A stretch of 8,647 bases of DNA from a virus (IMGVR_UViG_2660238215_000009); one strand, 5' to 3'. Positions 1 to 8,647 are shown, counted from the first letter of the stretch. Numbers and translations are program-made. Notes: generated by a model from the letters alone, not told the origin.

Positions 1-1152
1 TTGCAGGAAGGCAGTGGACGCACCCAGACTATCCGCATGATTCTGGTTGTCACGAACACCGAAGCCATCACGCTGAAAATCGACCCGTCTGTGGTTCTGG
101 CAACCCGCAAATATGTGGATGATAAAATCTCAGAGCACGAACAGTCACGACGTCACCCGGACGCCTCGCTGACCGTAAAAGGTTTTACTCAGTTAAGCAG
201 TGCAATTAACAGTGAATCAGAAACACTGGCCGCAACACCGAAAGCGGTTAAGGCTGCATATGACCTGGCTAACGGGAAATATACTGCCCAGAACGCCACC
301 ACAACACAAAAAGGGATTGTTCAGCTCAGTAGCGCCACGAACAGCACGTCTGAAACGCTGGCAGCGACACCAAAAGCTGTTAAGGTGGTAATGGATGAAA
401 CGAACAAGAAAGCACCATTAAACAGCCCGGCACTGACCGGAACGCCAACAACACCAACAGCGCCACAGGGGACTAATAATACCCAGATCGCAAGCACAGC
501 TTTCGTTATGGCCGCGATTGCCGCACTTGTAGATTCGTCACCTGATGCACTGAACACGCTGAACGAACTGGCTGCGGCGCTGGGCAATGACCCGAATTTT
601 GCGACCACCATGACTAACGCGCTTGCGGGTAAGCAACCGAAGGATGCCACCCTGACGGCGCTGGCGGAGCTTGCTACATCAGCAGANNNNNNNNNNNNNN
701 NNNNNNNNNNNNNNNNNNNNNNNNNNNNNNNNNNNNNNNNNNNNNNNNNNNNNNNNNNNNNNNNNNNNNNNNNNNNNNNNNNNNNNNNNNNNNNNNNNNN
801 NNNNNNNNNNNNNNNNNNNNNNNNNNNNNNNNNNNNNNNNNNNNNNNNNNNNNNNNNNNNNNNNNNNNNNNNNNNNNNNNNNNNNNNNNNNNNNNNNNNN
901 NNNNNNNNNNNNNGCATACAGGGGTGGTTAACAGGAAGTCATTATCATAATATTCGGTCATGGGACGCGTGGGATAACACGGTACTGGTGCCAAATGACA
1001 AAGGAGGGGATAGTCTGTTGTCGACAGATAACGCCGTCCGGCAAGGTGCAATTAACGGTAGATTTACCAGTCAATACAGAACGGAATCCTCAGTGGGGAA
1101 TGAAACCCGCCCACGCAATATTGCCTTCAATTATATTGTGAGAACCGCATAA
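1..1152 (+). CDS. Tail fibre protein, 5'-partial. Conserved P2 gpH / Mu S / lambda Stf-type N-terminal region, then a masked segment, then a variable tip ending in the shared C-terminal motif
   Basis: Long ORF with tandem ATPKAVK / SSATNSTSETLAATPKAVK-type repeats and ...NTLNELAAALGNDPNFATTMTNALAGKQPKDATLTALA, characteristic of the conserved N-terminal part of myovirus side tail fibres. Ends ...ETRPRNIAFNYIVRTA, the same C-terminal motif as the three minus-strand cassettes. The TTG at position 1 is almost certainly not the real start; the gene begins upstream of the window. Stop TAA at 1150-1152. Confidence 0.85.
   Translation: MQEGSGRTQTIRMILVVTNTEAITLKIDPSVVLATRKYVDDKISEHEQSRRHPDASLTVKGFTQLSSAINSESETLAATPKAVKAAYDLANGKYTAQNATTTQKGIVQLSSATNSTSETLAATPKAVKVVMDETNKKAPLNSPALTGTPTTPTAPQGTNNTQIASTAFVMAAIAALVDSSPDALNTLNELAAALGNDPNFATTMTNALAGKQPKDATLTALAELATSAXXXXXXXXXXXXXXXXXXXXXXXXXXXXXXXXXXXXXXXXXXXXXXXXXXXXXXXXXXXXXXXXXXXXXXXXXXXXXIQGWLTGSHYHNIRSWDAWDNTVLVPNDKGGDSLLSTDNAVRQGAINGRFTSQYRTESSVGNETRPRNIAFNYIVRTA
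687..913. other. Run of 227 N (masked or unresolved sequence) inside the tail-fibre CDS
   Basis: Directly visible. Reading frame is preserved across it (bases 685..915 = 77 codons), and its position and length match the ~220-bp conserved site-plus-collar-domain block seen at the 5' end of each minus-strand cassette. Confidence 0.99.
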
Positions 1153-1763
1153 TGAATAACGCGATATTAAATGATGACCTTATTGCCGTACAGGCAGGAA
1201 ACATCGTCGTTTATAACTATGATGGTGAAACACGGGAATATATTTCCGAATCAACTGAATATCTTGCTGTGGGTGTCGGTATTCCGGCAAATTCCTGTTT
1301 AGATGCCCCGGGCGCACATAAAGCGGGCTATGCTATCCGCCGTTCGGAGAATTTAAGTTCATGGGAGTATGCGCCAGACCATCGTGGTGAAACCGTCTAT
1401 AACACTGACACGGGAAACACCGAAGAAATCACGACGCTGGGTGACTACCCGAAAAATACAACCACTATCGCCCCGTTAACACCATACGATAAATGGGATG
1501 GTGAAAAATGGGTGACAGATACTGAGGCACAACATGGTGCCGCAGTAGAAGCGGCAGAAACCAAGCGCCAGTCACTGGCTGATGCGGCAATGGCTTCCAT
1601 AAGTCTGATTCAGTTGAAGTTGCAGGCCGGGCGGAAGTTGACGCAGGCAGAAACCACCCGGCTTAACGCCGTGCTGGATTATATAGACGCACTGAACGCA
1701 ATGGATATAAACATGGCACCAGATATCAACTGGCCGGAAATACCACTGGCAGCAGCCAGTTGA
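1152..1763 (+). CDS. tfa: Tail fibre assembly chaperone (Tfa; P2 gpG / Mu U / TfaE family)
   Basis: 203-aa ORF with ATG overlapping the fibre stop (TAATG at 1150-1154), implying translational coupling. Motifs typical of Tfa proteins as recalled: ...DHRGETVYNTDTG...KWDGEKWVTDTEA...ETKRQSL...APDINWPEIP. Stop TGA at 1761-1763. Confidence 0.85.
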   Translation: MNNAILNDDLIAVQAGNIVVYNYDGETREYISESTEYLAVGVGIPANSCLDAPGAHKAGYAIRRSENLSSWEYAPDHRGETVYNTDTGNTEEITTLGDYPKNTTTIAPLTPYDKWDGEKWVTDTEAQHGAAVEAAETKRQSLADAAMASISLIQLKLQAGRKLTQAETTRLNAVLDYIDALNAMDINMAPDINWPEIPLAAAS

Positions 1764-1769
1764 ATATAA

Positions 1770-2246
1770 CTAAGCCGCCCTCACGATATAGTTAAATGCA
1801 ATATTGCGGGGGCGGGTTTCACTACCACCTGTGTTACCAATACTTCCTCGTGAATGAAGCGTTGGTGATGGAATCAAACTCCCTCCTGTATTTGTGGCAT
1901 CAAGCCCCCTGCCTTGTGTATATGTTTTTTTGAAAATCGTGGCCAACTCCCATTCATCCTTTGTGTCATATCCATCGTTAGCTACAACAATATGGCGGTG
2001 TTTTTCCAACATCCCGGTTTGAATGCTCAATAAAGCGCGTGCTGCATCAATTCCTCGCCCATCATCCCAGCCACGGATAAATTCACCGCGTAAATCTGGT
2101 AATTTATTGGTGGGGTAGGCCTTTGCCAGTTTGGGATACATTTCAGAAGAAAATGCTGCACCGTTACATTTCAGCCAGCCCGTTGGTGGTGTAGCTGAGG
2201 GCCACGGAACGGGTACACCAACGGGCAACGCAGAGCCTTCCCCCAA
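1770..2246 (-). CDS. Silent alternative tail-fibre tip cassette 1 (tail-collar domain + variable region + shared C-terminal motif); no own promoter or RBS
   Basis: Minus-strand frame encodes (HENVG)LGEGSALPVGVPVPWPSATPPTGWLKCNGAAFSSEMYPKLAKAYPTNKLPDLRGEFIRGWDDGRGIDA (phage tail-collar domain signature PxGWLxCxG...YPxL...LPDLRGxFxRG), then ~85 variable residues, then ...ETRPRNIAFNYIVRAA. The listed start is a TTG inside the crossover site with no Shine-Dalgarno; the frame stays open upstream to 2267. Stop TAG at 1770-1772, 6 nt from the tfa stop. Confidence 0.7.
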   Translation of the reverse strand: MGEGSALPVGVPVPWPSATPPTGWLKCNGAAFSSEMYPKLAKAYPTNKLPDLRGEFIRGWDDGRGIDAARALLSIQTGMLEKHRHIVVANDGYDTKDEWELATIFKKTYTQGRGLDATNTGGSLIPSPTLHSRGSIGNTGGSETRPRNIAFNYIVRAA

Positions 2247-2263
2247 ACCAACGTTTTCATGCG
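2044..2263. repeat. Conserved ~220-bp block, copy 1 of 3 direct repeats (collar-domain coding + crossover site)
   Basis: By-eye alignment with 2558..2777 and 2998..3216 shows long identical stretches (e.g. cccatcatcccagcc, acatttcagaagaaaatg, gcaccgttacatttcagcc, ggaacgggcacaccaacgggca, aaaccaacgttttc). Identity is estimated at roughly 85-90%, not computed. Confidence 0.85.
2238..2263 (-). other. Candidate 26-bp invertase crossover site S1 (TTCCCCCAAACC-AA-CGTTTTCATGCG)
   Basis: Matches the hix/gix/cix-type architecture as recalled (TTCnnnnAAACC - 2-bp core - GGTTTnnnnnAA): strong left half, AA core at 2250-2251, weaker right half. Sits at the cassette 1 / cassette 2 junction and contains the cassette 2 stop codon (TGA, 2257-2259). 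Confidence 0.55.
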
Positions 2264-2760
2264 GCTCTTACGATGTAATTAAATGCAACGTTGCGAGGGC
2301 GAGTTTCTGTACCTACATTTCCACTAATTTCACCAAACCGTTTTACATTACGAGAGCTAATGGCTCGTAGTGAGGAAGGCACCTTTAAACCGGGTTCGTC
2401 TGTTTTAACTATTCCCCCGTCCCCGTATGTAGCCAGTATTCCAGGGTTTACTCCTTCCCGTGCACTTCCCGCGGCAAGTCCATCCCCGGTCCATAATTCC
2501 ATATAGTGTGCATGATCCAAAATTGTGTGTGGCTGCCAATTAAGCAAAGCGCGGCCAGCATCCACCCCGCGCCCATCATCCCAGCCGCGAATAAATTCGC
2601 CCCGTAAATCCGGTAATTTATTGGCGGGGTAGGCCTTTGCCAGATTGGGGTACATTTCAGAAGAAAATGCTGCACCGTTACATTTCAGCCACCCCGCTGG
2701 CGGCGTGGCTGAAGGCCATGGAACGGGCACACCAACGGGCAGTGCAGAGCCTTCCCCCAA
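2257..2760 (-). CDS. Silent alternative tail-fibre tip cassette 2 (tail-collar domain + variable region + shared C-terminal motif)
   Basis: Encodes (HENVG)LGEGSALPVGVPVPWPSATPPAGWLKCNGAAFSSEMYPNLAKAYPANKLPDLRGEFIRGWDDGRGVDA, then a distinct ~100-aa variable region, then ...TETRPRNVAFNYIVRAA. Start position is a TTG within site S2; no RBS. Confidence 0.7.
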   Translation of the reverse strand: MGEGSALPVGVPVPWPSATPPAGWLKCNGAAFSSEMYPNLAKAYPANKLPDLRGEFIRGWDDGRGVDAGRALLNWQPHTILDHAHYMELWTGDGLAAGSAREGVNPGILATYGDGGIVKTDEPGLKVPSSLRAISSRNVKRFGEISGNVGTETRPRNVAFNYIVRAA

Positions 2761-2777
2761 ACCAACGTTTTCATGCT
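2558..2777. repeat. Conserved ~220-bp block, copy 2 of 3
   Basis: See copy 1; same internal order, ending in crossover site S2. Confidence 0.85.
2752..2777 (-). other. Candidate 26-bp invertase crossover site S2 (TTCCCCCAAACC-AA-CGTTTTCATGCT)
   Basis: Differs from S1 only at its last base; core AA at 2764-2765; contains the cassette 3 stop codon (TGA, 2771-2773). Confidence 0.55.
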
Positions 2778-3256
2778 GCCCTTACGATGTAATTAAACGC
2801 AATATTACGAGGACGAATGGTTACATAATTAACCCCATCACCTCGTGAAGGCCCTGCAAATGAAAAACGGGAAAAGCCTGGTTGGTTAGAAACAATTTGG
2901 TCATAGTTATTGATTGAATGACCAGACCCAATGTCGAAATTACCTCCGTAATGAGAAAAACTTGTACCATCCTGCCCAGAAAGCAGGGTACGTCCCGCAT
3001 CAATCCCGCGCCCATCATCCCAGCCACGGATAAATTCACCGCGTAAATCCGGTAATTTATTGGTGGGATAAGCCCTTGCCAGTCTGGGATACATTTCAGA
3101 AGAAAATGTTGCACCGTTACATTTCAGCCAGCCCGTTGGTGGTGTTGCTAAGGGCCACGGAACGGGCACACCAACGGGCAGTGCAGAACCTTCTCCTAAA
3201 CCAACGTTTTCGTTTTTATCCCTACCTATACCAACTATGTATTTTTCACGAAACAA
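2771..3256 (-). CDS. Silent alternative tail-fibre tip cassette 3 (tail-collar domain + Gly/Ser-rich variable region + shared C-terminal motif)
   Basis: Encodes ...NENVGLGEGSALPVGVPVPWPLATPPTGWLKCNGATFSSEMYPRLARAYPTNKLPDLRGEFIRGWDDGRGIDA, a variable region, then ...VTIRPRNIAFNYIVRAA. The listed 5' end (TTG at 3254-3256) has no Shine-Dalgarno; sequence upstream of site S3 is probably not translated. Confidence 0.65.
   Translation of the reverse strand: MFREKYIVGIGRDKNENVGLGEGSALPVGVPVPWPLATPPTGWLKCNGATFSSEMYPRLARAYPTNKLPDLRGEFIRGWDDGRGIDAGRTLLSGQDGTSFSHYGGNFDIGSGHSINNYDQIVSNQPGFSRFSFAGPSRGDGVNYVTIRPRNIAFNYIVRAA
2998..3216. repeat. Conserved ~220-bp block, copy 3 of 3
   Basis: See copy 1; the most diverged copy (e.g. 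ttctcctaaacc vs ttcccccaaacc in the site). Confidence 0.85.
3191..3216 (-). other. Candidate 26-bp invertase crossover site S3 (TTCTCCTAAACC-AA-CGTTTTCGTTTT), closest to the invertase gene
   Basis: Same architecture as S1 and S2, core AA at 3203-3204. Lies 55 bp upstream of the invertase ATG, analogous to gixR/cixR next to gin/cin. Confidence 0.5.
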
Positions 3257-3270
3257 AGAGGATGTTTTTT
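3217..3270 (+). promoter_or_regulatory. Invertase 5' region: Shine-Dalgarno AAAGAGGA (3255-3262) and presumed promoter next to site S3
   Basis: AAAGAGGA sits 8 nt before the ATG at 3271. The AT-rich stretch has -10-like hexamers (tatacc at 3227-3232, tatgta at 3236-3241), but no clear -35 was identified; the promoter is inferred. Confidence 0.35.
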
Positions 3271-3870
3271 ATGCAAATTGGCTATATTCGTGTGTCAACA
3301 AATGACCAGAACACGGATTTACAACGCAATGCACTGAACTGCGCAGGATGTGAACTGATTTTTGAAGATAAAATCAGCGGAACGAAATCAGCCAGACCGG
3401 GATTGAAAAAACTGCTCAGAACGCTATCAGAAGGAGATACGCTGGTTGTCTGGAAGCTGGACAGACTGGGCAGAAGTATGAAACACCTGATCACGCTTAT
3501 TGAGGAATTGCGGGAAAAAGGTGTTAATTTCCGTAGTCTGACGGACAGCATTGACACATCAACACCCATGGGGCGTTTCTTTTTTCACGTCATGGGGGCT
3601 TTAGCCGAAATGGAACGTGAATTAATTGTAGAGCGTACACTGGCCGGGCTGGCAGCAGCACGCGAACAAGGACGCATTGGCGGACGTCGCCCGAAGTTGA
3701 CAAAAGAACAACACGAGCAAATAGCGAGGCTGATTAAAAACGGTCATGACAGGAAACAACTGGCGATCATTTACGACATCGGCATATCGACGATTTATCG
3801 TTATCACCCTGTAGGCGATATACAGGCTGAAGAAACAACCAGGCAGACTCAGGAAAATGAAAACCGCTAA
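3271..3870 (+). CDS. pin: Serine-recombinase DNA invertase (Pin/Gin/Hin/Cin family)
   Basis: 199 aa: MQIGYIRVSTNDQNTDLQRNALNCAGCELIFEDKISG...LVVWKLDRLGRSMKHLITLIEELREKGVNFRSLTDSIDTSTPMGRFFFHVMGALAEMERELIVERT...GRIGGRRPKLT..., near-identical in motifs to enterobacterial Pin/Gin invertases as recalled. Catalytic Ser9 is codon 3295-3297; C-terminal HTH region present. True start is the ATG at 3271 (RBS, family N-terminus), not the longer listed ORF from 3076. Confidence 0.92.
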   Translation: MQIGYIRVSTNDQNTDLQRNALNCAGCELIFEDKISGTKSARPGLKKLLRTLSEGDTLVVWKLDRLGRSMKHLITLIEELREKGVNFRSLTDSIDTSTPMGRFFFHVMGALAEMERELIVERTLAGLAAAREQGRIGGRRPKLTKEQHEQIARLIKNGHDRKQLAIIYDIGISTIYRYHPVGDIQAEETTRQTQENENR

Positions 3871-3889
3871 TCTGACCATTAGCGGTTTT
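3860..3889. terminator. Candidate bidirectional stem-loop between the convergent invertase and gpU-like genes
   Basis: Perfect 11-bp inverted repeat aaaaccgctaa (3860-3870) / ttagcggtttt (3879-3889) with an 8-nt loop. Overlaps the invertase stop codon; T-rich on both flanks. No free-energy calculation was done. Confidence 0.4.
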
Positions 3890-3896
3890 GCGTTAA

Positions 3897-4391
3897 TCAA
3901 AACAACCCTTTAACGGAGCTGGCCGCGCTGTTAAGGGATGATGTGACCTTATCTTTGAAGCCGGACAGCATATCACTGAACGATGAGGATTGCAGGCGCT
4001 CCCGCAAATCCTCATCACAGCGTTCAAGGGTCAGTGAAAATTCTATCTTTTTCGCCTTACCGTAGCGATCAAACTCGGAACGGGTCGTATTCGTTCCGGT
4101 CAGGACATACATGCCGTAAATCTGCCCGACGCCATCAATCAGAGGCCAGGGTCGTCCTGTATACGCCTGCGTGGTCAGCAGCGACAGCGACACTTCGCCA
4201 CCTGTAATTTCAGGATAAAGCACACCAGAAAGAACGATGCGATCATCACCTGCACCGATATACTGCCAGCTTGCTGAACGGTTAACGCGTTCATTTTTCA
4301 CATGCCGCCAGCTTTTGTTTTGCTGTAACTGCTGATGCGGCAGCGTGCGCAGCTCAAAAACAAACATGCCGTAGATCATCATCATGGCCAT
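3897..4391 (-). CDS. U: P2 gpU-like tail protein
   Basis: 164-aa ORF MAMMMIYGMFVFELRTLPHQQLQQNKSWRH...GVLYPEITGG..., resembling the P2 gpU family as recalled (MMM...FVF...Q..SWRH). Directly follows the tape-measure gene. The true start may be the ATG at 4385 (SD GGAG, 8-nt spacer) rather than 4391. Confidence 0.75.
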   Translation of the reverse strand: MAMMMIYGMFVFELRTLPHQQLQQNKSWRHVKNERVNRSASWQYIGAGDDRIVLSGVLYPEITGGEVSLSLLTTQAYTGRPWPLIDGVGQIYGMYVLTGTNTTRSEFDRYGKAKKIEFSLTLERCDEDLRERLQSSSFSDMLSGFKDKVTSSLNSAASSVKGLF

Positions 4392-4397
4392 GACTCC

Positions 4398-7238
4398 TCA
4401 ATCTTTATCGTAAAAACTGCCACGCCCGGCACGGGCGCGCCGTTCCATTTCTGCCCTGACCATTTCACCGACCAGTTTCGCCAGTTCGCGGGGATTCTGC
4501 GTAACAACGTTATGCAGATGAACATGAATTTCACCGCCAAATCCGGAGGCAACAGGCTCCCGGTTACGGGAAGTTACAGGAACTGATGCCACTGGAGATC
4601 GTATGGCCTCCGCCACCGGGCGGGAGCTGGCCGCAACAACAGGGACCAGCGCCGGAGGCAGCGGAGCCGGGACCACGGGTGTGATATTAATTGCGGGGGG
4701 CTTACTGACCTGCGCAATCTTCCGCTCCTGCCACTCCCCACGAACGGCAAGTGCGCGGGGCAGGTTCTTAAAGACAATATCGCCGGGGCCAATGCGTTTT
4801 TTCGTCTCCTCAACCAGCTTACCTGTGTTATCAGCAATTTTGCTGAGTCTGCGCAGCGTACCGGTATTGCTGTCTGTGAGCGGTTTATTGTCTTTGGGGT
4901 TATCACCTCCGGTACCATTGCCATTTTCCACAGGCTTCGGCGGATTGATTTTCGCCAGGTCCCCCTGAAGCAAGGCAACCTTGTCCTGAAGAATGGCCGC
5001 ACGCTGTGCGTCTTCGATTTTCTTGCGCGCCCTTTCCGCTTCATCCGGAAGGACGCCAAGTTTTTCAAGTATCCACGCCAGCGTATCCAGCAGCATTTTT
5101 GCAGGTGTCAGAACAAGCTGTAACGCACCGCCAAGAACGTTACCGAATATCTCGCCAGCACTGGTACATTTATCCAGCGTTTCCTTGCTGGACTCCATCG
5201 GTGACAGCAGCGATTTAAACCAGTTAAACACCTGGCTGATCCCGCTCCCGATTGCGTCAAAAACAGGACCAAACCGTTCAAAGGTTTCGCGCAACGGGGT
5301 CAGCCTTTCCATAATCCCGCTGAACACCCCGGCAAAAAATGCCCTGATGGGATCCCAGTATTTCCAGATAAGAACGGCAGCTCCGGCAAGCGCAGCCACG
5401 ATAAGACCAACCGGACTGAACAACGCCCCGATAGCGCCTCCCAGTAAAGAAACGGAACCCGTCACCATTCCCCATAGTGCTGGCAGAACCCTGACAGCAT
5501 TCATTGATCCGGTCAGGAGGGAAAAACCAAGACGCAGTTTTGCCAGCGGGCCAGCAAGCACACCAATAGCCAGCGACAACGAGCCAACCGTTGCAGTCAT
5601 TGCCAGCAGTGCACCGCCTGCAATCAGTAGCTGGCGCGTCAGTGCGGGATGGGCCTGCGCCAGCGCCGTCACCTTTGATACCACACGCGTGAGCCACTGC
5701 GTGACAGAACGCAGCGGACCGTCAATCAGATCTGCAATGCGGATGCGCAACCCTTCCCATGCACTGCTGAGTGATTTCAAATCGCCGTCAAGGTTGTTGG
5801 CCATAACCTTTGCCGTGCGTTCAGCCTCACCGCGCGCGCCTTCAAGTTCTTTTCTCAGTTTGGGTAAGGAGCCGTCACCTGCCGCATCAACGAGGGCCAT
5901 AAATGATGTGAAAGCCTCTTCTCCGGCAATGTCCTTAAAGAACGATACCCGGTCAACTTCCCCGTATTTGCGGGTAGCTTTATAAAGGTCAGCCAGCACA
6001 TCCTCCATCGGGCGCATTTTGCCCCCGGCATCCGAGACAGACACGCCAAGCTCTTTCAGCGCCTCTGCTGCCGCCTTTGGCGGTGATGCCAGACGAGCCA
6101 GGCTGGCACGCATTGCCGTACCAGCATCACTCCCCCTGATACCCATATTCGCCAGCACGCCCGCCATCGCTGCGGCCTGCTCCAGCGATATTCCCAGCTT
6201 ACCCGCCACCGGACCTGCATATTTCATGGTTTCACCCAGTGCGCGAAGGTCAGTGTTGGTACGGGTAAACGCTGCGGTGAGTGTGTCGCCGACCCGGTCC
6301 ATCTGGTCAGCAGAAAGACCGAACTGCGTCAGAATATTTGAGCCAATATCCGCCGTCTCACCGAGGTCCATACCGCCAGCCGTTGCCATGCTCAGTACGC
6401 CAGGGAGCGCAGCCTGAATGGCCTGTGGTGTGAAGCCAGCCATTGCAAGAAATGCCTGCCCACTGGCGGCATCGCCTGCGGTGAACTGCGTTTCAGAGCC
6501 AAGTTTTAACGCCTGCTCACGCAGCGCCTTAAACTGCGGGCTGTTTTTGTCGATTCGCGTCAGTGCCTGAACGCGGGACATCTCTTTCCCGAACCCGATC
6601 GCAGGCTGCAAAAAACGCCCGGCAGCATAGCCGCCCGCCGCTGCCGCACCAATTGCCAGCGCACCACCTGTTTTCAGTTTTCCCGCTGTTTCCTGCGCGC
6701 GCGAATACCGCTCACGCGCCTGCGTTACACGCGCAAGCGCCTGCCGTTCGCGTTCAAGCTGGTTGTTGTACTGTTCGGTGCGTCTGATGGCCTGCTGGAT
6801 GGTGTTATCGCTGCCTGTCAGGGAAATGCCGTGGCGTTTCAGCTCTCCGCCAATCTCCCGCATTTTCTGAATTTCCCGTGTGCGCGATTCATTCAGGCGT
6901 TCAAGCCGGGTGCTTAACTGCTGCATCAGCTTTTGTTGTTTTTCGCTGAGCACTGTACCCGTGCGTTGTAACTGATTAAGGGCGTTAAGCTGGCGTCGTG
7001 CTTTCACGATACCCGCATCCGCTTTACTGACAGCGTCGCGGGCGCGCTCAAATGAACGCGCCTGACGCTCGAGATTTTTGATCGCCCCCTGCGTTCGCTG
7101 GATGGAGTCACCAAACTGCCCCATCAGGCGGCGGGCGTTTTCGGCAGGCCGGGTCAGCCTGTCAACGGCGCTGAAAGCGACCCGGATATCAAGAGTCTTC
7201 ATTGTCTGCATTCCCGCTGCGAAGTGCCGCCCGCTCAC
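4398..7238 (-). CDS. T: Tail tape measure protein (P2 gpT-like)
   Basis: 946-aa ORF, Ala/Gly/Leu-rich with long hydrophobic helical stretches and coiled-coil-like Q/R/E-rich N-terminal region; located downstream of the E/E' frameshift pair as in all long-tailed phages. Start uncertain: GTG at 7238, or ATG at 7211 or 7202; overlaps the end of E'. Confidence 0.85.
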   Translation of the reverse strand: MSGRHFAAGMQTMKTLDIRVAFSAVDRLTRPAENARRLMGQFGDSIQRTQGAIKNLERQARSFERARDAVSKADAGIVKARRQLNALNQLQRTGTVLSEKQQKLMQQLSTRLERLNESRTREIQKMREIGGELKRHGISLTGSDNTIQQAIRRTEQYNNQLERERQALARVTQARERYSRAQETAGKLKTGGALAIGAAAAGGYAAGRFLQPAIGFGKEMSRVQALTRIDKNSPQFKALREQALKLGSETQFTAGDAASGQAFLAMAGFTPQAIQAALPGVLSMATAGGMDLGETADIGSNILTQFGLSADQMDRVGDTLTAAFTRTNTDLRALGETMKYAGPVAGKLGISLEQAAAMAGVLANMGIRGSDAGTAMRASLARLASPPKAAAEALKELGVSVSDAGGKMRPMEDVLADLYKATRKYGEVDRVSFFKDIAGEEAFTSFMALVDAAGDGSLPKLRKELEGARGEAERTAKVMANNLDGDLKSLSSAWEGLRIRIADLIDGPLRSVTQWLTRVVSKVTALAQAHPALTRQLLIAGGALLAMTATVGSLSLAIGVLAGPLAKLRLGFSLLTGSMNAVRVLPALWGMVTGSVSLLGGAIGALFSPVGLIVAALAGAAVLIWKYWDPIRAFFAGVFSGIMERLTPLRETFERFGPVFDAIGSGISQVFNWFKSLLSPMESSKETLDKCTSAGEIFGNVLGGALQLVLTPAKMLLDTLAWILEKLGVLPDEAERARKKIEDAQRAAILQDKVALLQGDLAKINPPKPVENGNGTGGDNPKDNKPLTDSNTGTLRRLSKIADNTGKLVEETKKRIGPGDIVFKNLPRALAVRGEWQERKIAQVSKPPAINITPVVPAPLPPALVPVVAASSRPVAEAIRSPVASVPVTSRNREPVASGFGGEIHVHLHNVVTQNPRELAKLVGEMVRAEMERRARAGRGSFYDKD

Positions 7239-7425
7239 GCCAGCTAACCACTTCGCCGGGCGTCATCATGAAGATTTCGGCGGGCGACCAGTTAAAAATA
7301 ACGGCAATATCTGCCACAAAGTCTTCTATGTGCTCAAAGCACACAACCGTGATCAGGCTTCCGTCGCCTGTTCGTTCTTCCCGCCAGAGTCCGCACCGCT
7401 CAAAAAATTTACGGCAACCACACAT
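7189..7425 (-). CDS. E': E' extension frame of the tail assembly chaperone; expressed only as an E+E' fusion by -1 frameshifting
   Basis: ORF in the -1 frame relative to E, overlapping its 3' end and the tape-measure start. After the slip the sequence reads ...NFL-ERCGLWREERTGDGSLITVV..., which matches this ORF. Stop at 7189-7191. Confidence 0.7.
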   Translation of the reverse strand: MCGCRKFFERCGLWREERTGDGSLITVVCFEHIEDFVADIAVIFNWSPAEIFMMTPGEVVSWRERAALRSGNADNEDS

Positions 7426-7718
7426 AACTGAATAAAGTCACGGGATGCCATTTTTTTGATCGTCACTTCATCCAGTCGCGGTGATGTCACGCGTGACAGC
7501 AGCGTAAACATGGATTCCGCTTTCAGATTCAGCACATCAGACAGCGACAAATCTCGCAGAGATCCAGCCTGCTCAATAGCCCCGGTGATCTCCACATACG
7601 TGATTTTTTCGCCGCCTCGCTCAATTGGTTGGGTAAGTTTTACGCCACGCTCACTGGTTTCTTTCACAGTGTCAGCAACTACCGTGTTTTCGGTATCGAT
7701 GTTTTTCGTCTCTTTCAT
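7353..7718 (-). CDS. E: Tail assembly chaperone (P2 gpE-like)
   Basis: 121-aa acidic ORF immediately upstream of the tape-measure gene with a strong RBS (AAGGAG, 7-nt spacer) before the ATG at 7716-7718; contains the slippery site near its 3' end. Confidence 0.8.
   Translation of the reverse strand: MKETKNIDTENTVVADTVKETSERGVKLTQPIERGGEKITYVEITGAIEQAGSLRDLSLSDVLNLKAESMFTLLSRVTSPRLDEVTIKKMASRDFIQLCVVAVNFLSGADSGGKNEQATEA
7401..7407 (-). other. Programmed -1 ribosomal frameshift slippery heptamer T_TTT_TTG (minus strand)
   Basis: Minus-strand sequence AAT TTT TTG AGC (N-F-L-S in the E frame). An X_XXY_YYZ heptamer at the point where the E and E' frames overlap, the same type of site described for the P2 E/E+E' pair. 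Confidence 0.75.
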
Positions 7719-7772
7719 CAGGAAACTCCTTTCAGTCAGAGGCGACGCACTGCGCCGCCTGCATATTACTTA

Positions 7773-8285
7773 TCAGCCAAGCCCAAGCGCGGAACGGATG
7801 CGATCGGGCACAATGTCCTTGCCGTCCTTCCGGTAAATGAAGTTCAGCAGGTCAATCTCCCACAGCGGGCGATCGTTAACGCTCAGCTTGTAGTAGGTGT
7901 TTTTAATGGCGTAAGAGTGTGATGTGGCTTCGCCCTGTTTGGCTTCCCCCATATCAATTTCCGTCACACGTCCGCGCATTTCGACTTCATACAGGTCGCT
8001 TTCTGCATCGGTGTAGTATTCACCCGCAAAACGCAGCAGCGTGCCGTCAATCGTGCCGCCATACTTAAGGAACAGCTCACGAACTGCGCCCCCCATGACA
8101 AAGCTCGCATCAAGCGCGGAGTCGTCCAGACCGAGATCAATACTTACCGCACCCATCATGCCACCACCCCAGTAGCTGTCGGTTTTGCGCGTCAGCTTAG
8201 GCAGAGTGACGGACGTCACCTTACCCACTTCGTTTTCACCATCCACAAACAGCGTAAAAAAGCGAAGATGTTTTGGCACAGCCAT
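7773..8285 (-). CDS. FII: Major tail tube protein (P2 gpFII-like)
   Basis: 170-aa ORF MAVPKHLRFFTLFVDGENEVGKVTSVTLPKLTRKTDSYWGGGMMGAV..., resembling contractile-tail tube proteins. ATG at 8283-8285 overlaps the sheath stop (TGATG). Confidence 0.85.
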   Translation of the reverse strand: MAVPKHLRFFTLFVDGENEVGKVTSVTLPKLTRKTDSYWGGGMMGAVSIDLGLDDSALDASFVMGGAVRELFLKYGGTIDGTLLRFAGEYYTDAESDLYEVEMRGRVTEIDMGEAKQGEATSHSYAIKNTYYKLSVNDRPLWEIDLLNFIYRKDGKDIVPDRIRSALGLG

Positions 8286-8647
8286 CAGGCACCTCCCAGC
8301 ACCGCAAATGCGGGTTCAAAGTATTCATCAGTAAACGTCTGGTAAAGCTCCATATCTTCCAGCGGGGGAACAGGCGTATATTTGTAGCGAATACGCACAC
8401 GCCCCTGACGTAAATCCGTGGTGCTGTTATCCACCACGTCATACCAGCACTCCGCGCCAATCAGTTTCCCGGCAGTAACCAGTGAATCCAGTTTTGCCCT
8501 GATGGCACTGATAACATCCTTCACGTTCGCAGGCGTCAGTGGACTGTCGATGGTTTCAAACTGCGCTTCCGCAATTGAATCAGCCAACACCTGTGCGGTT
8601 CGGGTATACACCTCAAAGATGTAGGCGTTCGTTTCCGGTGTGCGGTT
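8285..8647 (-). CDS. FI: Tail sheath protein (P2 gpFI-like), C-terminal part; 5' end lies beyond the window
   Basis: Frame is open from the window edge (8647) to TGA at 8285-8287; C-terminal sequence ...RVRIRYKYTPVPPLEDMELYQTFTDEYFEPAFAVLGGA. Position immediately upstream of the tube gene fits sheath-tube order. Confidence 0.75.
   Translation of the reverse strand, partial: NRTPETNAYIFEVYTRTAQVLADSIAEAQFETIDSPLTPANVKDVISAIRAKLDSLVTAGKLIGAECWYDVVDNSTTDLRQGRVRIRYKYTPVPPLEDMELYQTFTDEYFEPAFAVLGGA

Follow-up and report, generated by a model that had tools for sequence, protein, structure and literature searches.

The window, that is, the whole 8,647-nt stretch of viral DNA that was analysed, carries a tail fibre module and a serine invertase on one strand and a P2-type tail-shaft operon, cut by the window edge, on the other. 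The features are as follows (+ and - denote the strand).

1-1152, +, tail fibre protein H (ORFs; broken by the N-run at 687-913)
1152-1763, +, tail fibre assembly protein (ORFs)
1-1763, +, end of a V-W-J-I-H-G late operon, by synteny with P88, TUM1881 and JNE082640; it converges on FI to U
1770-2246, 2257-2760 and 2771-3256, -, three silent tail-fibre tip cassettes (ORFs; repeat families D1 and D2)
2238-2259, 2752-2773 and 3191-3212, 22-bp crossover sites, one heading each cassette (site search: three matches versus 0.00 expected)
3271-3870, +, serine DNA invertase of the Gin/Hin/Cin/Pin type (Pfam Resolvase, 2.2e-51; HTH_7, 1.4e-12)
3860-3889, no strand assigned, hairpin AAAACCGCTAAT-N6-ATTAGCGGTTTT between the convergent invertase and gpU (terminator scan)
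3897-4391, -, gpU-like tail protein (Pfam Phage_P2_GpU, 1.5e-38; 46% identity to P2 gpU)
4398-7238, -, tape measure protein gpT (Pfam PhageMin_Tail, 3.7e-58)
7189-7425, -, E' reading frame (Pfam Phage_P2_GpE, 1.7e-12)
7353-7718, -, tail assembly chaperone gpE (placed by synteny and position; called 'phage tail protein E' in relatives)
7773-8285, -, tail tube protein FII (Pfam Phage_tube, 9.4e-46; 42% identity to P2 FII)
8285-8647, -, C-terminal third of the tail sheath protein FI (Pfam Phage_sheath_1C, 7e-11; the window edge cuts the gene)

Between positions 3271 and 8647, ORFs and Pfam matches place the invertase (+) face to face with gpU, T, E/E', FII and a partial FI, all on the - strand. 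Read along that strand the order is FI, FII, E, E', T, U, with Pfam support for the FI C-terminal domain, FII, the E' frame, the tape measure and U. This is the composition of a P2-type tail-shaft operon: sheath, tube, E/E' chaperone pair, tape measure and gpU, in order and on a single strand. What differs from the canonical P2 F operon is the position right after gpU, where gpD would be and where the hairpin and the convergent invertase, spaced 26 nt from gpU, are found instead. No Phage_GPD-type ORF was detected anywhere in the window by ORF and Pfam searches. On a larger scale, the H-G module (+) and the U-to-FI block (-) are convergent.

Some gene boundaries deserve comment. The gpU start annotated in RefSeq relatives corresponds to window position 4385, gpU being the final gene of the inverted tail-shaft operon; that of gpT (in P88 and TUM1881) corresponds to 7202, while the ORF extends to 7238. 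The gpE zero frame alone gave no match in a Pfam search, and its product is 31% identical to gpE of the P2-like Peduovirus magyaro. A slippery heptamer, TTTTTTG, lies at 7401-7407 (-) in the E-frame register T TTT TTG, and E' is read in the -1 frame relative to E. In the P2 record, E+E' is annotated as arising from a -1 frameshift, and the heptamer and the frame arithmetic of the window agree with this; an E+E' product is predicted to be made by -1 frameshifting at this heptamer. The N-run in H measures 227 nt. The three-cassette layout also occurs in the complete genome JNE082640.

A preliminary description of this DNA had reported FI to U as inverted relative to P2 and converging on the invertase. 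Gene identities and strands, as judged by ORFs and Pfam, bear this out, and the P2 order on which it relied (H G ... FI FII E E' T U D) agrees with the annotated P2 record. It also had the geometry of the silent cassettes right: these (1770-3256) and the FI-to-U operon are co-directional, both being on the - strand. Its statement that no gpD-like gene follows gpU is correct as well; in complete relatives, gpD is found past the FI start, on the other side of the block.

Position of gpD and gene order in relatives

The gene order in relatives is H, G (cassettes, invertase), followed on the opposite strand by the convergent U, T, E', E, FII and FI, and then by D and ogr, which point away from FI. 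The divergent gpD and ogr (+) lie just beyond the FI start in P88, TUM1881, JNE082640 and SEN5, with Pfam matches to Phage_GPD and Ogr_Delta (5e-14 for the ogr homologue after D). Indeed, they are present in every complete relative examined, across a gap of about 150 bp from FI. In E. coli TUM1881, FI occupies 25015-26199 (-) and D 26357-27457 (+). The block at 3271-8647 aligns with TUM1881 free of gaps at 99.4%, and in window numbering this alignment puts the FI start at about 9469 and, after a gap of about 157 bp, the gpD start at about 9627. Since the window ends within FI, we infer the place of gpD in the source genome from its relatives and would expect it about 980 bp beyond the right edge. 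The genes flanking the inverted block keep their orientation, which indicates that gpD has not been lost.

The arrangement is common. Phage P88 (Xuanwuvirus) shares 95.7% nucleotide identity over 100% of positions 3271-8647, and 13 phage records cover at least 80% of the block. The invertase-U junction is spanned in 1359 of 5426 complete E. coli genomes. A query for the FI-D junction matched in 1379 E. coli genomes. In an even sample of 30 rows, 29 run across the junction and one is a D fragment. The inverted layout is identical in P88, TUM1881, JNE082640 and the 51 inverted loci described below. The convergent H-G / U-to-FI order is the normal, inherited layout of a common family of P88-type P2-like prophages and is not novel. 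The preliminary description had named a convergent order shared by well-assembled close relatives as what would make the layout ordinary, and this is what is seen: relatives with high-quality sequences have it as a stable feature.

It follows that neither a convergent H-G / U-to-FI order nor a gpU without gpD after it is a sign of a defective prophage or of mis-assembly. This should be of interest to annotators and to the makers of synteny-based prophage tools, as roughly one complete E. coli genome in four carries a prophage of this clade, which also occurs in many Enterobacterales. Both P88 and PhiSM are temperate phages that can be induced, form plaques and are viable (PMC5285337, PMC6456863). 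The FI-to-U inversion is not explicitly discussed in the papers on P88, PhiSM and SEN4/5 or in the Xuanwuvirus and Peduoviridae gene-order literature covered; the likeliest places, Casjens & Grose 2016 and Grose & Casjens 2014, lay outside that coverage.

Age and origin of the inverted block

In the phage collection, U and D are adjacent on one strand in 387 of 521 records, among them phages of Burkholderia, Ralstonia, Pseudomonas, Mannheimia and Xanthomonas, and are split in about 50. The canonical order, also that of P2, is therefore ancestral. Among 85 classifiable loci, FI to U is inverted in 51 and canonical in 34, the latter having been sampled through two peptide patterns only (best 80 hits). 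The two groups are also distinct in sequence, gpD identity to the P88 type being at least 61% in all the inverted loci and at most 54% in the canonical ones. Neighbour-joining trees of D, FI and FII, which were midpoint-rooted and constitute a coarse test of monophyly, each contain the inverted/canonical split. The inverted loci are spread over some 20 genera of Enterobacterales. Both inverted and canonical loci were found in Xenorhabdus genomes; the xenorhabdicin literature gave no information about the orientation of FI to U.

It is very probable that, in the P88-type (Xuanwuvirus) lineage, FI to U and their promoter PF were inverted once, long ago, while V-W-J-I-H-G and gpD-ogr stayed in position, gpD now lying beyond the window edge. 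Judging from these comparisons, the event appears to have been a single old inversion, in place, of exactly FI to U with its promoter. Carriage of its own promoter would explain how an essential operon of six genes could be turned round and become fixed. Among the explanations put forward in the preliminary description, that of a different modular arrangement proved to be apt, in the form of a fixed lineage layout derived from this one inversion of FI to U and promoter.

The alternative that comes closest is that nothing was inverted in place and that a foreign tail-shaft module was gained in the opposite orientation by modular exchange. Phage genomes are mosaic, and the fibre/invertase region bears the marks of recent exchange, gpI and the invertase being 74% and 90% identical, respectively, to those of Peduovirus magyaro. 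However, an imported block is at odds with the divergence from P2-type orthologues, which is much the same within the block (FI 47%, FII 44%, U 46%, T 34%, E 31%) and outside it (V 47%, W 43%, J 55%, D 49%, X 48%, R 40%). Similar values inside (31-47%) and outside (38-55%) fit an inversion in place better than an import. Moreover, the trees of FI and FII contain the same split as that of D, and the P2 spacing of PF to FI is retained. Import is therefore rejected as the main explanation by the matching divergence in and out of the block, and we regard it as improbable.

A further alternative involves the resident invertase, which the preliminary description considered as a conceivable agent of the inversion by way of a secondary site. 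If FI to U were flipped, now or recently, by this Gin/Hin-type enzyme at secondary crossover sites, it would amount to a large programmable inversion. In favour of this, the block has an invertase gene right beside it and three genuine crossover sites no more than 700 bp away, and serine invertases are able to act on quasi-sites. However, at each block border the sequence closest to the 22-bp crossover site still differs from it at 9-10 of the 22 positions, which is the mode of the random background; likewise, a pattern search in TUM1881 and the mismatch scan against background yielded no crossover-site remnants above chance at the borders. A repeat search detected no inverted repeats around the block. 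An invertase adjoins U in only 7 of the 51 inverted loci and is absent in the other 44, while invertases are also present in canonical loci. One and the same orientation is shared by more than 1300 E. coli genomes and by about 20 genera, and no flipped variants were seen among the E. coli genomes (1359 collinear at the invertase-U junction, plus the sampled FI-D rows). Finally, the invertase shares 90% identity with its counterpart in magyaro, a phage of canonical order, against about 45% for the structural backbone; the invertase module must therefore be much younger than the inversion and have arrived long after it. A role of the invertase in flipping the block is thus highly unlikely. The enzyme is an unrelated accessory at the end of the fibre module, placed by chance at the convergent junction.

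A chimeric junction, that is, a mis-join at the repeat-rich inversion region, can practically be dismissed. The window does hold an N-run (687-913), as the preliminary description said, along with repeated cassettes, but the invertase-U junction is about 3 kb away from that run and is collinear in the 1359 complete genomes and in isolated phage genomes. The surrounding stretch (914-4400; tfa, three cassettes, invertase and U) also keeps its collinearity, with about 97% identity, in JNE082640 and other complete genomes, and complete genomes are collinear over both junctions and the cassette region.

Predicted transcription of the block

Alignment of 49 distinct FI-D gaps from the relatives reveals one conserved dyad, GTTGT-N12-ACAAC, with conserved flanks. 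The site is alignable across the clade and scores at least 8 out of 10 in 42 of the 51 inverted loci; its TGT-N12-ACA core, which is all that a few Xenorhabdus loci retain, matches sites annotated as activator-binding in the P2 record. The dyad centre is at a median of 82.5 nt from the FI ATG in inverted loci, compared with 82.5 nt for P2 PF and a median of 80.5 nt in canonical loci, and at a median of 69.5 nt from the D ATG; in P88 it lies at about position 33263. On both sides of the dyad, -10-like hexamers (nAnnAT) occur at +44 to +49, with the A (+45) and the T (+49) conserved. These hexamers would put transcription starts at about +56, as in P2. In the E. coli P88 type, the left half of the dyad is GTTCT instead of GTTGT and the D-side hexamer, GACCAT, is weak. 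The same GTTCT-N12-ACAAC is found in the P/O gap of P88 and TUM1881.

P2 itself has such a layout at pP/pO, where, according to its record, two divergent late operons about 150 bp apart share one central activator-binding dyad, with starts 56 and 55 nt away from the middle of the dyad. In the P88 clade, the FI-D gap resembles pP/pO, with the FI and D starts and the dependence on Ogr being deduced in its case and with a shorter D leader. If the start is 55-56 nt from the dyad centre, this leader would have a length of no more than about 13-14 nt in the E. coli type. The central dyad with its flanking hexamers most likely represents one Ogr-type site for both promoters. The short D leader, the GTTCT half-site and the weak D-side hexamer of the E. 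coli type count against this, as do the Xenorhabdus loci that have the core alone. FI to U would then be transcribed leftward from PF within the gap of about 150 bp, and gpD-ogr rightward out of the same gap. By analogy with P2, we think it on balance likely that the inversion gave rise to another bidirectional late promoter of the pP/pO kind, with one Ogr dyad serving FI to U and D-ogr. Since the P2 late activator dyad appears to be bidirectional, it would have supplied the stranded gpD-ogr with a promoter at once.

At the other end of the block, the hairpin at 3860-3889 has a 12-bp stem set between an A-tract and a T-tract, and overlaps the invertase stop codon. Its predicted RNA fold has an energy of -15.8 kcal/mol (z -2.7) on the - strand and -16.9 kcal/mol (z -3.7) on the + strand. 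Comparable A-stem-T hairpins occur after gpU in many inverted loci. The element resembles a bidirectional intrinsic terminator, and both the FI-to-U transcript and that of the invertase are predicted to end there. A sequence resembling the late promoter dyad (score 9; GTTTTGCGTTAATCAAAACAAC, 3885-3906) was considered as a relic of PF or as a promoter directed at the cassettes. It was rejected, as its core has TTT and not TGT, no -10-like hexamer is present at +44 to +49 or -44 to -49, and it is composed of the terminator T-tract and the final gpU codons and is missing from P88.

Any FI-to-U transcript reading through 3860-3889 would be antisense to the invertase and sense to the cassettes, a combination that no late transcript of the canonical P2-like phages has. 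One might speculate that late transcription damps the invertase, thereby freezing the fibre switch in lytic growth, or yields low-level RNA for alternative tips, but we consider such effects very unlikely.

Comparison with known P2-like phages

The closest parallel is Escherichia phage P88 (Xuanwuvirus P88, NC_026014 / KP063541), whose order is identical to that of the window. The related isolates 503458, 520873, P884B11, Citrobacter Shae_phiSM and 500465-2 have the same order and, with P88, show 92-96% nucleotide identity over 3271-8647. The fibre and cassette region of P88 differs, with a single silent fibre and tfa pair in place of the three tip cassettes of the window. In two P88-related isolates, IS100 is present in this region.

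The inverted FI to U with a divergent D extends to a different genus, as seen in Salmonella phage SEN5 (Senquatrovirus). SEN5 has no invertase, and U converges there on the tail fibre assembly gene. U and D are likewise split in the Klebsiella phages Kp4860-2 and Kp4846-1. The gpD proteins of SEN5 and of these two phages show 62-71% identity.

Peduovirus magyaro (NC_041848), Fels-2 (NC_010463) and SEN8 (NC_047753) bear an invertase and have the canonical order. They share with the window H, G, silent fibre cassettes on the opposite strand and an invertase closing the fibre module. Unlike in the window, however, the invertase is followed in the same direction by FI, FII, E, E', T, U and D, so that their silent cassettes are antisense to all late transcription.

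P2 (Peduovirus P2, NC_001895) has in common with the P88 type the genes FI, FII, E/E' (with the -1 frameshift), T, U, D and ogr, and a late promoter dyad of the same kind upstream of FI; its proteins are 42-49% identical to those of the window type for FII, U and D. In its annotated record, H G ... FI FII E E' T U D ogr are on one strand, FI to U being co-oriented with both H-G and D, and Z/fun, not an invertase, lies between G and FI. U overlaps D by 1 nt, and therefore the D gene of P2 has no promoter of its own.

Gene layout and order in close relatives

The gene layout of the window was taken from the ORF list and Pfam matches.

1-1152, +, tail fibre H (ORF; broken by a run of N at 687-913)
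1152-1763, +, tail fibre assembly protein, tfa (ORF)
1770-2246, 2257-2760 and 2771-3256, -, three silent fibre-tip cassettes (ORFs), each with a 22-bp crossover site at its head
2238-2259, 2752-2773 and 3191-3212, the 22-bp crossover sites
3271-3870, +, serine invertase (Pfam Resolvase, 2e-51)
3897-4391, -, gpU (Phage_P2_GpU, 1.5e-38)
4398-7238, -, tape measure (ORF list/Pfam)
7189-7425, -, E' (Phage_P2_GpE)
7353-7718, -, E (ORF)
7773-8285, -, tube FII (Phage_tube, 9e-46)
8285-8647, -, C-terminal part of sheath FI, truncated by the window edge

The preliminary description, whose P2 gene order agrees with the annotated P2 record, had the FI..U tail-shaft block running opposite to that order with no gpD behind gpU. 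The ORFs and Pfam matches bear this out, and no gpD-like ORF was found within the window. The invertase and gpU genes converge, 26 nt apart, and a hairpin with a 12-bp stem (3860-3889; -15.8 and -16.9 kcal/mol, one value per strand) occupies the gap. A TTTTTTG heptamer (7401-7407) lies in the E/E' overlap in a register that would fit a P2-type -1 frameshift.

Region 3271-8647 matches phage P88 (Peduoviridae, Xuanwuvirus) over its full length at 95.7% identity and five other phage isolates at 92-95%. Among 5426 complete E. coli genomes, 1359 give a single collinear match to at least 80% of the query, invertase-U junction included, the best being 99.4% identical without net indels. P88 and the prophages of E. 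coli TUM1881 and JNE082640 (loci L002 and L089) share the order V W J I H G (+), cassettes (-), invertase (+), U T E' E FII FI (-), gpD (+), ogr (+). In these relatives gpD (Pfam Phage_GPD) and ogr (Ogr_Delta) lie on the + strand beyond FI. A gap-free alignment to TUM1881 puts the FI start at about window position 9469 and the gpD start at about 9627, roughly 980 bp past the edge; gpD thus appears to lie just outside the window. An FI-D junction query matched 1379 genomes; 29 of 30 rows sampled evenly along the ranking cross the junction, the other being a D fragment, and the flipped form was seen in none of the 30. Since complete genomes are collinear over the junctions and over 914-4400 (tfa, three cassettes, invertase, U), the suggested mis-join is excluded everywhere but in the N-run itself.

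Several copies show local peculiarities. In many E. coli O157:H7 genomes the gpD match breaks off some 270 bp into the gene (query position 925), and in JNE082640 (L089 16477-17330) the annotated gpD has a shortened start and adjoins a pseudogene fragment, which suggests that prophage copies are decaying in some lineages. In the P88-type isolates 503458 (CP025874/NC_049341) and 520873 (CP025923/NC_049344) the block matches in two pieces, and the features under the match include an IS21-family IS100 (transposase and IstB) and tape-measure annotations. Behind ogr, TUM1881 (27951-29661) carries genes for a hok/gef toxin, for a protein with a TM2 domain, and for a Com-family regulator with a DNA methyltransferase behind it, the last pair reminiscent of Mu com/mom, just ahead of host raiA. 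A 226-kb contig (NZ_JBQPOM010000071.1) labelled as the Firmicute 'Vagococcus sp. WN89Y' harbours a P88-type prophage whose gpD shares 99% identity with that of E. coli; the assembly is probably contaminated or mislabelled.

Spread and origin of the inverted block

P2, Peduovirus magyaro, Fels-2 and SEN8 have the canonical order H G [Z/fun, or cassettes plus invertase] FI FII E E' T U D ogr on one strand, and in the last three the invertase occupies the same place as in the window. The sole difference in the P88 type is the reversal of FI..U; D and ogr keep their direction. A gpD-alignment scan was made with one genome per species; the best 80 loci, with phage loci added, were classed for orientation by tblastn with window and P2 proteins, giving 51 inverted and 34 canonical among those classifiable. 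In these, the block is inverted wherever gpD has 61% or more identity to the P88 type, and canonical wherever that identity is at most 54%. The inverted loci come from Salmonella, Serratia, Edwardsiella, Erwinia, Pantoea, Kosakonia, Enterobacter, Citrobacter, Klebsiella, Pectobacterium, Brenneria, Providencia, Morganella, Xenorhabdus, Photorhabdus, Hafnia, Yersinia and others. All three neighbour-joining trees contain the inverted/canonical split: one for D, which lies outside the block, and two for genes within it, FI and FII.

A fused U+D query matched 521 records of the phage collection; U and D are neighbours on the same strand in 387 of these, among them phages of Burkholderia, Ralstonia, Pseudomonas, Mannheimia and Xanthomonas. 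On this distribution, the canonical order is ancestral. About 50 records have U and D split (the P88 group, Klebsiella Kp4860-2 and Kp4846-1, Salmonella SEN5); SEN5 (Senquatrovirus) has the inverted block of the P88 type but no invertase. The inverted order is derived and marks a single Enterobacterales clade of several genera; it is a stable and ancient lineage trait and not an anomaly. The proposed different modular arrangement is therefore supported, the order being fixed in P88, the E. coli genomes and the 51 inverted loci.

Proteins inside the block are as diverged from their P. magyaro orthologues (FI 47%, FII 44%, U 46%, T 34%, E 31% identity) as those outside it (V 47%, W 43%, J 55%, D 49%, X 48%, R 40%, ogr 38%). 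At the level of sequence, this argues that the backbone, block included, co-diverged and that the block was inverted in place, not imported as a module. In the comparison of TUM1881 with P. magyaro, the invertase (90%) and gpI (74%) are far more alike than the remaining virion genes (31-55%), which indicates that the fibre-proximal and invertase module has recently passed horizontally between genera. That the resident invertase made the inversion, as had been proposed, is unsupported: an invertase adjoins U in only 7 of the 51 inverted loci, no inverted repeats flank the block, and nothing similar to the 22-bp crossover site was found at either border, where the best matches have 9-10 mismatches, the mode for random 200-nt windows.

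The inverted arrangement is compatible with virion assembly, since both P88 and PhiSM are functional temperate phages (PMC5285337, PMC6456863). It is already known and could be read from public annotation from the time of the P88 deposit; no comment on it was found in the literature covered, the P88, PhiSM and SEN4/5 papers included. The PhiSM tail is described as long and non-contractile, of siphovirus type (PMC6456863), yet the phiSM genome (OR565851, Citrobacter phage Shae_phiSM) carries a sheath/tube/tape-measure block 93.6% identical to the window; the PhiSM and PhiNP micrographs may have been interchanged.

Fibre switch and possible read-through

The three tip cassettes (1770-3256) are in tandem on the - strand. 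Each terminates in ...NIAFNYIVRAA*, and the TGA stops supply the first bases of the following crossover site (TGAAAACGTTGGTTTGGGGGAA). JNE082640 (L089 7181-7360) has an additional cassette on the + strand behind H, after the same site. The fibre switch is multi-cassette and looks more like Min/shufflon-style multiple inversion than a two-state Gin/Cin switch. The N-run (227 nt) falls at the expected constant/variable junction of H and its oppositely oriented partner crossover site; the legible stretch of H shows no such partner, its best match having 9 mismatches, and the H of TUM1881 carries one with 4 mismatches. The N-run may stem from assembly trouble with mixed orientations of the invertible segment.

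The silent cassettes had been described as co-directional with the tail operon, and the geometry is correct, both lying on the - strand. An FI..U transcript passing the hairpin would cover the invertase gene in antisense and the cassettes in sense orientation, which is impossible in the canonical invertase-bearing relatives (magyaro, Fels-2, SEN8). The cassette 5' ends fall inside the crossover site, which encodes ...ENVGLGEG... in frame; their 'TTG' starts are ORF-finder starts only, with no obvious ribosome-binding site. The cassettes are hence unlikely to be translated; the more plausible outcome of read-through would, speculatively, be an antisense effect on the invertase.

A putative shared late promoter

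Alignment of the gap between the divergent FI and gpD genes from 49 distinct inverted loci reveals one conserved dyad, GTTGT-N12-ACAAC, which matches the activator-binding site annotated upstream of PF, the late promoter of the FI operon, in the P2 record. The Ogr/Delta site has the form TGT-N12-ACA. The distance from dyad centre to FI ATG in inverted loci (median 82.5 nt) equals that of P2 PF (82.5 nt) and is close to that in canonical loci (median 80.5 nt), which argues that PF moved along with the block; the D ATG lies at a median of 69.5 nt in the inverted loci. When sequences are anchored at the dyad centre and compared ungapped, a -10-like hexamer is found at +44 to +49 on both sides, with a conserved A at position 2 and T at position 6.

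Most likely, a single activator site would drive FI..U leftward and D-ogr rightward. In P2, gpD has no promoter of its own; a shared site would explain its continued expression after the inversion. An A-stem-T hairpin stands closely behind gpU in many inverted loci, the window included, and its position between convergent operons fits a putative bidirectional terminator. At the invertase/gpU junction, GTTTTGCGTTAATCAAAACAAC (3885-3906) agrees with the dyad pattern at 9 of 10 positions. It was judged a chance match made up of the terminator T-tract and the last gpU codons; it has no -10-like element at the proper spacing and is missing in P88.

The gain is modest, a testable model of a shared bidirectional late promoter in the FI-D gap. 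The hexamers imply that transcription would start about 56 nt either side of the dyad centre. For the divergent late promoters pP and pO, the P2 record has a single 'activator binding site; pO, pP promoters' and places the starts 56 and 55 nt away from the centre of that site. GTTCT-N12-ACAAC, the form that the dyad takes in E. coli P88-type phages, is also present in the P/O gap of both P88 and TUM1881. The geometry so predicted for the FI-D gap is that annotated for pP/pO of P2.
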